DNA from: a phage
Strand: one strand, 5' to 3'
Assembly (NCBI GenBank): GCA_012343875.1
Contig: GCA_012343875.1_3924.1
DNA length: 64,000 nucleotides
The position numbers and the translations under genes are program-made. The number at the start of each line of letters is the position of its first letter. The first letter of the stretch is position 1. Below the pieces are notes generated by a model. It had not been told where the DNA came from. It ran no database searches and saw nothing but the letters and a program-made list of their open reading frames with translations. Positions 13,804 through 16,777 of this stretch are shown here, one piece after another.

Positions 13804-14022
13804 ATGGATAAAGATAACAAATATAATAACGCCGTCCTTACAGAAGATGGTGAGCTTGAAACATTCATTCTTCGTGTTGATGGTAAACTATTCCGGTGTC
13901 GTTGTGGGTCAAACTGTTTTCATAAACCAGATAAAAATGACTTAGAGCTTTACGCATGTAATGCTTGCAATACTTGGTATCACTCAGAGGTTAAAAATGA
14001 CAATTCTATACAAACAAAATAA
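13804..14022 (+). CDS. small zinc-ribbon protein
   Basis: CRCGSNCF...CNACNTWYH (C4-type); ATG 13804 preceded by GGTGAGAG. Confidence 0.45.
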   Translation: MDKDNKYNNAVLTEDGELETFILRVDGKLFRCRCGSNCFHKPDKNDLELYACNACNTWYHSEVKNDNSIQTK

Positions 14023-15097
14023 AGATGGCTCTTTTAACGTCTGGTCATGCGTTGCTGTAGGTAACAAAGTTATTACAACCTACGGTAAAGAAAATGGCAA
14101 GATGATGTTTGAAGAGTATACAGCAGAACCTAAAAACATCGGTAAAAAGAATGAGCGTAACGCTGAACAGCAAGCTCTCTTTGAAGTTGCTGCTAAGTAC
14201 AAAAAGCAAGTTGACCGCAAAGGTTATGCTTACACAAAAGAGTCTGCACAGAATACTGAAAAGGCAGGTGTACAGCTTGCTCATGATGCTGCAAAGGTTA
14301 GCCACGCAAAGTATTTGAAGTTCCCTGCTGATGCTCAACCAAAACTTGATGGTGTACGTTGCAGAATTTCAAGAGATGCTGATTCAGTTAGTTTCACGGC
14401 TTATTCTCGTGAGAATACTGTTTACAACGTTCCAGCAGAACTAATCCCAGATTTGCTTTTGCTGCTTAAATTACACCCGCAAGTTGAAGACTTTGATGGC
14501 GAGATTTATGCTCATGGTTGGGACTTAGAAGATATTGTATCTATGATTAAGAATGCTGACAATCCAGACCGTCACCTTCTTAAATTCTACTGGTATGATA
14601 TCTGTGACAATTCAAAATCTTGGCCTGAGCGTCGTGAAGTTATTGATAACTCACCTATTGTTGAGCTTGGGGATGCCTGTAGAGTTGTTCCTGTACAGAC
14701 TATCCGTGTAAATTCTTGGGAAGAGTTTGATGAAGCTCATGATAAGTGGGTTGAAGCTAAGTTTGAAGGTGCAATGTACCGTTCAATCTCTGAAGACTCA
14801 TTCTATGAGTGTTGTCACCGTTCATACTTCTTGATTAAGCACAAGAAGATGCACACTGAAGAGTTTAAAGTGACTGGTGTAAAGACTGATAAACGTGGTC
14901 ATGGTAAGTTCGTTGTAGAGACTCTTCCTAACGTCTTTGTAGATGTCTCATGGAAGACTACTCATGAGAAGAAACAGTATCTTGCTGAGCATCCTGATGA
15001 GTTTATCGGGAAACCTTTAACGGTACAGTTCCAGAAGATGACTCGTAAGGGGTCTTTGCAGTTCCCTGTTGGGCTAGTTATACGAGATTATGAATAA
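13997..15097 (+). CDS. ATP-dependent DNA ligase
   Basis: Adenylation motif I PKLDGVRC (KxDGxR); start taken at ATG 13997 (GAGG upstream). Confidence 0.8.
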   Translation: MTILYKQNKDGSFNVWSCVAVGNKVITTYGKENGKMMFEEYTAEPKNIGKKNERNAEQQALFEVAAKYKKQVDRKGYAYTKESAQNTEKAGVQLAHDAAKVSHAKYLKFPADAQPKLDGVRCRISRDADSVSFTAYSRENTVYNVPAELIPDLLLLLKLHPQVEDFDGEIYAHGWDLEDIVSMIKNADNPDRHLLKFYWYDICDNSKSWPERREVIDNSPIVELGDACRVVPVQTIRVNSWEEFDEAHDKWVEAKFEGAMYRSISEDSFYECCHRSYFLIKHKKMHTEEFKVTGVKTDKRGHGKFVVETLPNVFVDVSWKTTHEKKQYLAEHPDEFIGKPLTVQFQKMTRKGSLQFPVGLVIRDYE

Positions 15098-15103
15098 AAG
15101 TTG

Positions 15104-15131
15104 TTGACATAGAAAATTTGGTGAGTATACT
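15104..15131 (+). promoter_or_regulatory. sigma70-like promoter TTGACA-16-TATACT
   Basis: TTGACA at 15104-15109, 16-nt spacer, TATACT at 15126-15131, immediately after ligase stop. Confidence 0.5.
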
Positions 15132-15139
15132 GAGCAGCA

Positions 15140-15320
15140 TAAACCAACGGGTACTCACCAGCATCACTTAAGAGTCTTTTAAAAGGGTTTTTAAGTGATG
15201 TGTAGCTCGGTCAGGTATGGTGCGGTGGTGTAAGGTGGTGTCAGGTGTAGTATGGTGCTGTGATGTGAGGTATGGGTAGTTAGTCTCAGCTACATTAAAA
15301 TGAGACTTACCTTTTTAAAA
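15140..15320 (+). ncRNA. candidate small RNA (GU-rich, hairpins plus terminator)
   Basis: Downstream of promoter 15104-15131: inverted repeat CATCACTTAA/TTAAGTGATG (15161-15200), GT-rich tract 15208-15280, hairpin AGTCTCA/TGAGACT (15282-15307) followed by T-run; no ORF. Confidence 0.35.
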
Positions 15321-15415
15321 GGTCTTTAAGAGGGTCTTTTAATAAGGTATTGTATGGTGTAGTTTGGTTAGGTATGGTTGGGTGTGGTAAGGTAGGGTAT
15401 GGAAGGATGGCAGTA
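15208..15415 (+). repeat. GT-rich degenerate microsatellite-like blocks (GGTRTGG-type units)
   Basis: Two blocks (15208-15280 and 15343-15415) of reiterated GGTATGG/GGTGTAG/GGTGTGG units, almost C-free on plus strand. Confidence 0.7.
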
Positions 15416-15526
15416 GCCTTATAAAAAATCTGCCAAATAAGCTATAAAATCTGTTGACAAGTCAGGTGTTATAGCTTATTTTTATACTCAATGTAATACA
15501 AAATTTAATATAACTTTGAGGTCATT

Positions 15527-15910
15527 ATGAAAAAGGTTTTATTAGCTGCTGCAATGGTTATGGCAATGAACTTACCAGTCAATGCAACAGAACTTCCAAA
15601 TGTGGACTTATCAGGTGTTCCAGAAGATACTTGCCAGATTGTAAAAGGTGTTGCGCTATCTAAAGGTGAGTTACTTAAACCAATCTCTGAAGAATCTTTG
15701 ACAGAGATGACTGATAAGGTAACTGACTATCAGTATCGTGTTCTTGCAGAGTATTTCCTGCAATCTGCAAACATTAAAGAGAAACACCATGACGATATTG
15801 ATGTACAGGCGATGCTCAACCACCGTATCCAGTTTAAAGAAGATTTGATGCAAAAAGCTATGTATGGTGTTGAGTATTTCTTAGAAAACAGAAGCTGCAC
15901 AGGTATTTGA
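15527..15910 (+). CDS. putative secreted/periplasmic protein (127 aa)
   Basis: N-terminal signal-peptide-like MKKVLLAAAMVMAMNLPVNA. Confidence 0.5.
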   Translation: MKKVLLAAAMVMAMNLPVNATELPNVDLSGVPEDTCQIVKGVALSKGELLKPISEESLTEMTDKVTDYQYRVLAEYFLQSANIKEKHHDDIDVQAMLNHRIQFKEDLMQKAMYGVEYFLENRSCTGI

Positions 15911-15911
15911 T

Positions 15912-16124
15912 ATGGCTCTTAAAAAGTTACATCCCAGAAGCGGTTATGGTAAGATAGTCGATGATACAGACGGCTTTACAGTATTTACAGTCATCTGTCA
16001 AGATGATTCACAGATTGAAAAGGCTCTTGATGATTATCTTAACGATGAACGTGAAAAGGTTAGGGCTACAAACATAGATTCATTAATTGACACTTCACGT
16101 AAACGGAAGAAGAAAGATGAATGA
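15912..16124 (+). CDS. hypothetical protein (70 aa)
   Basis: ORF track. Confidence 0.4.
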   Translation: MALKKLHPRSGYGKIVDDTDGFTVFTVICQDDSQIEKALDDYLNDEREKVRATNIDSLIDTSRKRKKKDE

Positions 16125-16416
16125 AGTTTTTGACCCTTATGCTCCACAAGATGATTGGGAGGCTGACAGAGAGGCTGAAATGGAGAGTTATGTTTGTCCA
16201 ATGGATGTAGACGAAATGAGAGATTTCGTTGCACACCGTTTTAAGAAAGAGATTAAATCCAGAGGTCTTTCTCAAGAGCAAGTTGCTAAAATTTGTGGTA
16301 TCTCTCAGGCTCGCGTATCCAACATAATCCACCTCACTGGTAATGTCTCCCTTGAGTATATGTTGGAAGTATGTGAAAAATTTGGTGTTAATTTCAATTT
16401 AAGGCTGGCAGATTAA
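16117..16416 (+). CDS. putative helix-turn-helix DNA-binding regulator
   Basis: LSQEQVAKICGISQARVSNII resembles XRE/Cro-type HTH; start at ATG 16117 overlapping upstream stop. Confidence 0.5.
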   Translation: MNEVFDPYAPQDDWEADREAEMESYVCPMDVDEMRDFVAHRFKKEIKSRGLSQEQVAKICGISQARVSNIIHLTGNVSLEYMLEVCEKFGVNFNLRLAD

Positions 16417-16417
16417 T

Positions 16418-16777
16418 ATGAAACGTGAAAACATTATCCACTCTGAAAACTTCGCATTAGGCTTTTATGGTGTACCTACTCACCTTGAAAAGTATTATGG
16501 TGTGAAGATTCTCTCCAATCTCATTATGGCTTACAAAGATGGTAAGATTAAGCATACTGAGAAGAAACGTGTCATGGGCTATATGGCTGTAGGTTCAGCA
16601 ATCTCGAACATTAAGCTGGAAACAACTAGCAGTCAGATTGTGAAAGACCACTTCATCAAAGAGCTTTACCAGAATCTTGATGGTGTAGATGTTCAGGCTG
16701 TTTGGCTGGATGTTGACGGTCATAACTACACGAGTTTTGTTTTCAAAAACGACGACATTAAGTGTCTGTTCCCATAA
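16418..16777 (+). CDS. hypothetical protein (119 aa)
   Basis: ORF track. Confidence 0.45.
   Translation: MKRENIIHSENFALGFYGVPTHLEKYYGVKILSNLIMAYKDGKIKHTEKKRVMGYMAVGSAISNIKLETTSSQIVKDHFIKELYQNLDGVDVQAVWLDVDGHNYTSFVFKNDDIKCLFP

Follow-up and report, generated by a model that had tools for sequence, protein, structure and literature searches.

The gap between the DNA ligase gene and the gene that follows it in this phage (15098-15526) very probably holds two vrRNA genes of type II (the SUSP1 clade), which are aimed at a satellite, have apparently lost their effector genes and are most likely inert on their own. vrRNAs are the guides of VIPR (Viral Interference Programmable Repeat), a phage system that silences rival mobile elements and that was described in two preprints (bioRxiv 10.64898/2026.04.26.720920, 10.64898/2026.04.26.720927), cited throughout from the part of their text that was accessible.

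In the mechanism that we propose, each vrRNA gene consists of a leader hairpin, YNNGG units in a single-stranded run and, as its 3′ tail, a conserved structure. Where the system is complete, each GGY is bound by one Vipr protomer, and the helical filament exposes the NN bases; these pair with double-stranded DNA, leaving out every third base of the target, and the bound complex blocks transcription of the target. In the phage studied here, vipr, vap1 and the vrRNAs between them would have been lost via recombination between repeated copies of a leader hairpin (LB), with two guides left behind a conserved early promoter. These would be aimed at an E. coli satellite that carries tail genes, vrRNA1 at its tape-measure gene and vrRNA2 at a promoter, and would become active only if a co-infecting relative supplied Vipr.

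The locus and its signals

The window, i.e., the whole stretch of 64,000 nucleotides that was analysed, represents 64 kb out of a genome of roughly 85 kb. A comparison of bases 14000-16500 with phage records identifies the source as a Felixounavirus, a Felix O1-like myovirus: 261 records match at 80-99% identity, 203 of them at more than 90%, and nearly all belong to Ounavirinae of Escherichia, Salmonella, Shigella or Citrobacter. The gap adjoins replication genes. It had been described as free of open reading frames, and this was borne out, as none of at least 30 aa was found on either strand between the ligase stop (15097) and the next ATG (15527). The features of the locus are as follows.

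13961-15097: ATP-dependent DNA ligase gene, bordering the gap on its 5′ side
15104-15131, plus strand: predicted early sigma-70-type promoter P1, TTGACA (15104-15109), 16 nt, TATACT (15126-15131), 11/12
15120-15159, plus strand: 8-bp inverted repeat GGTGAGTA / TACTCACC, spanning the -10 box and start region of P1
15162-15200, plus strand: leader hairpin LA (CATCACTTAAGAGTCTTTT-AAA-AGGGTTTTTAAGTGATG), directly 5′ of the vrRNA1 repeats
15201-15275, plus strand: guide region of vrRNA1, 15 YNNGG units
15276-15311, plus strand: 3′ tail of vrRNA1, type T1 (GTAG..CTAC and AGTCTCA..TGAGACT), H-type pseudoknot
15312-15345, plus strand: T-run, then leader hairpin LB (TTTTTAAAAGGTCTTTAAGAGGGTCTTTTAATAA), a 12-bp hairpin in the fold
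15346-15408, plus strand: guide region of vrRNA2, 11 good GGY-NN units
15409-15434, plus strand: 3′ tail of vrRNA2, type T3 (GGCAG, 16-nt A-rich loop, CTGCC)
15437-15482, plus strand: inverted repeat ATAAGCTATAA/TTATAGCTTAT (15437-15479) and T-run
15454-15459 (TTGACA), then 17 nt and TATTTT, plus strand: predicted promoter P2, 10/12, inside the ATAAGCTATAA/TTATAGCTTAT repeat
15527-15910: 127-aa gene, bordering the gap on its 3′ side

The sigma70-like promoter noticed behind the ligase stop is present, with a sequence identical in dune, NRG857CP1, Moogle, SUSP1 and Si3, and it is marked as a promoter in the annotation of AYO145A. By its position, P1 is placed to drive vrRNA1 and, in relatives, vipr-vap1. 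The inverted repeat across its -10 box folds at -15.3 kcal/mol (z -2.95) and is conserved among relatives. One possible role is that of an operator, which might be bound by the Cro/CI-type HTH regulator whose gene lies about 1 kb downstream (~16117-16416). Another inverted repeat that had been pointed out, CATCACTTAA/TTAAGTGATG, is real and belongs to the 19-bp LA hairpin (-18 kcal/mol, z -4.8), which is found before many tracts across 29 related loci. Likewise, a TTGACA does lie between the arms of the ATAAGCTATAA/TTATAGCTTAT repeat, as had been noted, with a T-run after it; the repeat is conserved in relatives and folds at -16.4 kcal/mol (z -4.6). It looks like the terminator of the vrRNA array and the host of P2, which would serve the 127-aa gene.

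A few further observations concern the surroundings of the array. Each vrRNA leader hairpin carries two GTCTTT(T) motifs (in the window at 15173-15179, 15323-15328 and 15335-15341), which we take to be the preferred single-strand binding heptamer of the cold-shock proteins CspB and CspE. A search for the leader motif AAGGTCTTT elsewhere in the window returned matches in coding sequence only. In SUSP1 and Moogle, the interval between the ligase stop and P1 contains some 180-200 additional bases with small ORFs, a segment that is missing from the window and dune, and the closest two-module relative, OZ035796.1 (27526-27705 versus window position 15096/15097), has about 178 additional bases there. 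The GenBank record MN850637.1 (phage warpig) terminates within the vrRNA region, its end (85957-86106) matching window positions 15372-15526; this probably is an assembly break caused by the repeats and not the true genome end. The PhageMaP paper on Bas63 makes no mention of the vrRNA interval.

Two tracts with a five-nucleotide code

The two GT-rich blocks of the gap were originally read as reiterated GGTRTGG units. The blocks themselves are real (15201-15275 and 15346-15408), but their unit is a different one, namely Y-N-N-G-G with a strict period of 5 nt, in 15 and 11 copies. When 60-nt stretches on both strands of the 64 kb were scored, in-phase GG reached 10 of 12 consecutive units here, and no stretch elsewhere had as many as six. 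The NN bases read GT TC CA AT GC GG AA GG CA GT AT GC GA GA AT in vrRNA1 and AT AT GT TT TA AT TG GT AA AG AT in vrRNA2. The vrRNA1 tract is identical to the first tract of phage dune, which carries vipr.

In dune, AYO145A, Moogle and SUSP1, the same locus contains genes for proteins of 195 aa and 146 aa between two GT-rich intergenic regions. These regions are built from a repeated module, consisting of a leader hairpin, either LA (CATCACTTAAG...) or LB (TTTTTAAAAGGTCTTTAA.AGGGTCTTTTAATAA), a GT tract and a conserved tail of type T1, T2 or T3. A comparison of 29 related loci yielded 97 modules with 74 distinct tracts, each phage having between one and six modules. Tracts that share leader and tail type nearly always differ in length by a whole multiple of 5 nt; the exception is one of 25 LA-T1 tracts, which is off by 1 nt, while a few LB tracts appear to deviate only through the fuzzy-matched boundary of their leader. 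The profile of the 969 units in the 74 unique tracts is T.85, N, N, G.81, G.93, where the Y position is T or C in 95% and A in 3%, and all 16 possible NN spacers are in use. Phages that share about 95% identity in the flanks differ in the tracts, which are hypervariable.

The tails are conserved, and the T1 and T3 tails of the window are the tail sequences of SUSP1. Structure prediction with covariation in related phages had been proposed as a check, and the pseudoknot model of T1 holds for 16 distinct sequences: all of them can form helix 2 (100% paired), in which three pairs covary. Helix 1 is invariant across these sequences and therefore is uninformative on covariation. The T3 stem is invariant in 29 modules and folds at -7.9 kcal/mol, and T2 has GGTAG/CTACC where T3 has GGCAG/CTGCC, which amounts to one compensatory pair. 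An extended T1 stem (GGGUA/UACCU) that is predicted by minimum free energy was rejected, since several variants break its pairing without compensation. What had been seen as a hairpin plus T-run (15276-15316) is present as a conserved vrRNA 3′ tail followed by TTTTT, though a consensus terminator scan made no call there.

The partner protein and the published system

At least 120 contigs of IMG/VR contain a run of seven GGT units in phase. Besides perfect microsatellites, these include many unrelated viral contigs with degenerate arrays that are separated by short conserved punctuation and number up to 18 tracts per locus. Clustering of the ORFs around 56 such array loci, plus dune and the window, revealed one family of proteins of about 180 aa in 37 of the 56 loci (38 of 58 sequences when dune and the window are counted). 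It includes the 195-aa product of the dune gene (dune_67), which matches PDB entry 36pp, "SUSP1 Vipr protein", with an E-value of 6e-128. The same protein falls into PHROG 4652, of unknown function in PHROGs, and a Pfam search returned no family for Vipr or vap1.

Among the unrelated IMG/VR contigs, one has 18 vrRNA-like tracts that each end in GGGCAG|TT (L127 3220-4394, plus strand), another has 12 with GGAATGGTTTAATGAATTTAATT between them (L049 2217-3406, plus strand), and a third has seven with GGCTAATG between them (L039 3396-3843, minus strand). A GGCAG tract end, as in the T3 tail of the window, is common to many otherwise unrelated arrays. In 19 of the 56 array loci (e.g., L034, L035, L066 and L126), the DNA examined contains no ORF of the Vipr family; some of these may be further orphan arrays, and others simply short or truncated stretches.

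According to the two preprints, a vrRNA consists of 9-16 YNNGG repeats and an invariant tail, which in the SUSP1 clade is a pseudoknot. Small-RNA sequencing of SUSP1 infection found four vrRNAs of about 100 nt, one upstream and three downstream of vipr-vap1, and these RNAs co-purify with Vipr. Cryo-EM revealed a helical filament with one Vipr protomer per repeat, in which GGY is flipped into pockets of the protein, and also resolved the 3′ pseudoknot of a SUSP1 vrRNA. The NN bases pair with DNA such that every third target base is skipped, which results in transcriptional silencing that can be programmed. Targets could be identified for 20 guides of the SUSP1 clade, and 18 of these match a satellite phage in E. 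coli genomes; some satellites have vrRNAs of their own (10.64898/2026.04.26.720920, 10.64898/2026.04.26.720927).

The tracts of the window, with 15 and 11 YNNGG units, lie within this range and combine a conserved GGY with hypervariable NN, and T1 and T3 are invariant structured 3′ tails. Because the SUSP1-type leaders and both tails match the published anatomy, we regard the two tracts as vrRNA genes. The original prediction of a small RNA locus is thereby supported and acquires a specific content, as transcripts of about 100 nt were seen from the same locus in SUSP1. With these data as a model, we infer that the vrRNAs are transcribed in the window phage as well. An Rfam search of the gap at a permissive E-value, likewise named as a check, produced only chance matches and no family.

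Predicted targets in an E. coli satellite

The satellite was located by searching 5,426 complete E. coli genomes with the DNA of SUSP1 gp017. It is present in 474 of them, always in the chromosome, as an island of about 10-12 kb that carries recombinase, tape-measure and baseplate genes and occupies several integration sites. Sites that we noted are yciI/tonB, the interior of a DUF72 gene between yecN and yecD, mdtG/lpxL and a position beside wrbA. The ten copies used below are L151 (5500-17300), L152, L153, L154, L155 and L158-L162; in four of them, the tape-measure gene is interrupted by an IS element.

These ten loci were scanned without gaps under the NN-skip-NN rule, with 80% matching NN positions as the criterion. 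For the SUSP1 guides, the scan reproduces the published result on satellite loci (27/30, 22/26 and 21/24). Both guides of the window exceed 80% on this natural DNA. vrRNA1 matches 27 of 30 NN positions (90%) within the tape-measure gene (L158 10729-10772), and the skipped base falls on codon position 3, the wobble position. vrRNA2 matches 20 of 22 (91%) at L159 6051-6082, and this site takes in the -10 box as well as the start region of a promoter (TTGACA-17-TAGTAT) that precedes a 184-aa gene. Shuffling the order of the units gave maxima of 23 for vrRNA1 and 19 for vrRNA2, and none of 300 shuffles attained the observed matches. Within their own 64 kb, the best matches of the two guides are 70% and 77%, which is under the 80% criterion.

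On the side of the host, five satellite loci contained neither vipr nor GGY tracts in a tblastn search and a tract scan. The vrRNA region had no blastn match in the 5,426 E. coli genomes, and the same was true for the vipr-vap1 DNA, i.e., there is no host-side source of vipr in this set.

Probable loss of the effector genes

A complete VIPR locus has an adjacent vipr, encoding a RAMP-like protein of about 20 kDa, and a downstream vap1. The window has neither. A tblastn search of the window with dune Vipr did not find vipr (best E 1.1), and vap1, which accompanies vipr in all 18 of the vipr-positive loci that were examined, was not found either (best E 2.9). The complete genome of NRG857CP1 (84,421 bp) aligns collinearly with the window at about 95% and likewise contains two modules in this layout; a search of this genome yielded no vipr (best tblastn E 0.34), no vap1 and no further GGY tract. 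Furthermore, vipr occurs at a single place in nearly every record that has it (131 places in 130 matching records). From these two observations, we infer that vipr is absent from the rest of the window phage's genome, too.

This state is widespread. In the phage collection, 118 Ounavirinae records have vipr, versus 231-261 that have the vrRNA region, and the deficit is strongest in Salmonella phages, with 17 versus 75-78. The annotation of AYO145A names homologues in Felix O1 for two genes, that of the ligase and that of the 127-aa protein, and gives none for vipr or vap1, which suggests that Felix O1 itself lacks both. About half of the Felixounavirus records, probably with Felix O1 among them, keep promoter-driven, well-formed satellite guides without Vipr.

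The layout of the window hints at how the genes may have disappeared. It reads LA-tract-T1, LB-tract-T3, which equals the first upstream module of dune joined, inside LB, to its last downstream module, and in dune the LB leader occurs in both intergenic regions that flank vipr-vap1. This fits a deletion between LB repeats, and the stretch of T-run and LB at 15312-15345 is probably where the ends were joined after vipr-vap1 had been cut out. A further deletion, this time between LA repeats, would agree with the layout of phages that have one module, such as Si3 (LA-T3). That the change was a loss rather than a gain is suggested by parsimony.

Fate of the orphan guides

It is possible, if rather unlikely, that orphan guides are retained because they function, either loaded on the Vipr of a co-infecting relative or as decoys that soak up the Vipr of a competitor. 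About half of the records with a vrRNA region have no vipr (118 versus 231-261), the strong P1 promoter is still present in the window, and satellites sometimes have their own vrRNAs according to the preprints (10.64898/2026.04.26.720920, 10.64898/2026.04.26.720927). The condition of the guides is also compatible with use. In a comparison of 16 distinct orphan tracts with 60 vipr-linked ones, GGY was kept, with 73% versus 78% perfect YNNGG units (Fisher p 0.15), and the match to the ten satellites was equal, with a median NN match of 0.85 versus 0.86 and 10/16 versus 42/60 guides at 80% or more (Mann-Whitney p 0.65).

However, when a deletion runs from one leader repeat to another, at least one intact module is bound to survive it, no selection being needed, and for this reason the retention of vrRNAs is not evidence of selection. 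Moreover, the three orphan tracts that occur as single modules, in four loci altogether (Si3, at L006 3103-3163 and at L022; the IMG/VR loci L008 and L014), have no significant match in the ten E. coli satellites and none at 80% or above. Two of the three look degenerate, with many TGT or AGT units in place of GGT. Si3 at least is a Salmonella phage. The single-module orphans are either decaying or aimed at Salmonella elements. The lack of vipr-like DNA in the 5,426 E. coli genomes likewise speaks against continued function.

The quality of the orphan guides fits recent, recurrent loss of the effector and continued use in trans equally well. Our preferred reading is that the guides are most likely inert in the window phage unless Vipr comes from elsewhere. 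That effector-less vrRNA arrays are a maintained strategy, by which a phage free-rides on the Vipr of relatives or disarms the Vipr of a competitor with decoys, seems quite unlikely to us; if true, guide-only loci would form a new layer of conflict between phages, other phages and satellites.

A probable RNA guide rather than a sponge or a DNA element

Two further explanations are very improbable. The first, suggested when the gap was first noticed, is a GU-rich small RNA that titrates a host RNA-binding protein via GGA motifs, in the manner of CsrB and CsrA. The tracts are indeed long, single-stranded and repetitive, their predicted structure is slight (-5.5 and -14.7 kcal/mol), and GGAAGGATGG at the 3′ end of vrRNA2 contains two GGA. 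Yet the conserved triplet is GGY and not GGA, given that A makes up 3% of the Y position against 95% for T plus C, and the multiple GGA motifs, mostly in hairpin loops, that characterize CsrB and RsmZ are not found in the tracts of the window. A dedicated phage protein for exactly this repeat, Vipr, is known and its structure solved, no Rfam family matched, and the NN bases, which act as the guide, match foreign DNA much better than expected by chance, a property for which a sponge has no use.

The second, equally improbable explanation is an element at the DNA level, be it iterons, as in the original suggestion, an R-loop replication origin or a recombination hotspot arising from the GT-rich strand. 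Beside replication genes and downstream of a consensus promoter, the non-template strand is rich in G and poor in C, GT-rich DNA is preferred by RecA and resembles Chi, and the locus is recombinogenic, with one to six modules per phage. However, the repeats entail recombination between modules as a side effect, and a conserved GGY with free NN and multiple-of-5 lengths is without precedent among iterons. Small-RNA sequencing and co-purification with Vipr in SUSP1 show the product to be RNA. The compensatory changes that keep the helices paired, together with the NN matches to foreign DNA, point to an RNA guide and not to a DNA site.

A number of working ideas were dropped once Vipr had been found as the partner. 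These were a TRAP-like ring on GGU-NN repeats, which had served as the working hypothesis, strings of two-tetrad G-quadruplexes, an R-loop replication origin, an array of primase recognition sites, a RecA- or Chi-like recombination hotspot, a Rho-avoiding leader and arrays of sigma-70 pause sites.

Comparison with known systems

The locus belongs to a kind already described in 2026 and is not categorically new. VIPR has been presented as an RNA reading of DNA by a gapped code and proposed to be older than CRISPR, and the published discovery pipeline begins from the Vipr protein (10.64898/2026.04.26.720920, 10.64898/2026.04.26.720927), which makes it blind to orphan guide loci. For this reason, and because the word "orphan" is absent from the accessible text of both preprints, effector-less arrays appear to be unreported, and the orphan state of the guides is a modestly new point.

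The case has some wider bearing. It illustrates that a VIPR-type locus can be picked out by reading raw sequence alone. Orphan arrays are common in a well-studied genus that is used for Salmonella typing and phage therapy, where they constitute a natural test of whether vrRNAs are shared or interfere in trans, as well as a record of repeated effector loss through recombination at guide leaders. The locus in the window furthermore offers two concrete predicted targets in an E. coli satellite (474 of 5,426 complete genomes).

The closest known system is the type II VIPR of SUSP1, with which the locus shares its position between the ligase gene and the 127-aa gene, the P1 promoter, the LA and LB leaders, the T1 and T3 tails, the YNNGG code, the range of units and the E. 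coli satellite as the target element. It differs in lacking vipr and vap1, in having two vrRNAs as compared to four in SUSP1 and five in dune, and in the NN sequences, which are not those of SUSP1.

CRISPR, and orphan CRISPR arrays in particular, offer a second comparison. As in the crRNAs of Class 1 systems with their Cas7-type RAMP filaments, a variable targeting part is joined to a constant handle, one protomer with a RAMP fold serves each repeat unit of the guide, and, as orphan CRISPR arrays illustrate, guides can persist without adjacent effector genes. As far as the accessible text of the preprints goes, VIPR has, unlike CRISPR, neither acquisition machinery nor a PAM (10.64898/2026.04.26.720920, 10.64898/2026.04.26.720927). 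Its guide also is not contiguous, since two of every five RNA bases read two of every three DNA bases, and it silences its target instead of cleaving it, the carrier being a lytic phage.

A third parallel is TRAP, which binds (G/U)AG-NN repeats in the trp leader of Bacillus, where a triplet with a 2-nt spacer recurs about 11 times in single-stranded RNA, and, as in vrRNA, one protein subunit takes up each unit of triplet plus spacer. However, TRAP is a closed 11-mer ring that regulates attenuation and is unrelated to RAMP proteins, and while its spacers carry no information, the spacers of a vrRNA are the message.
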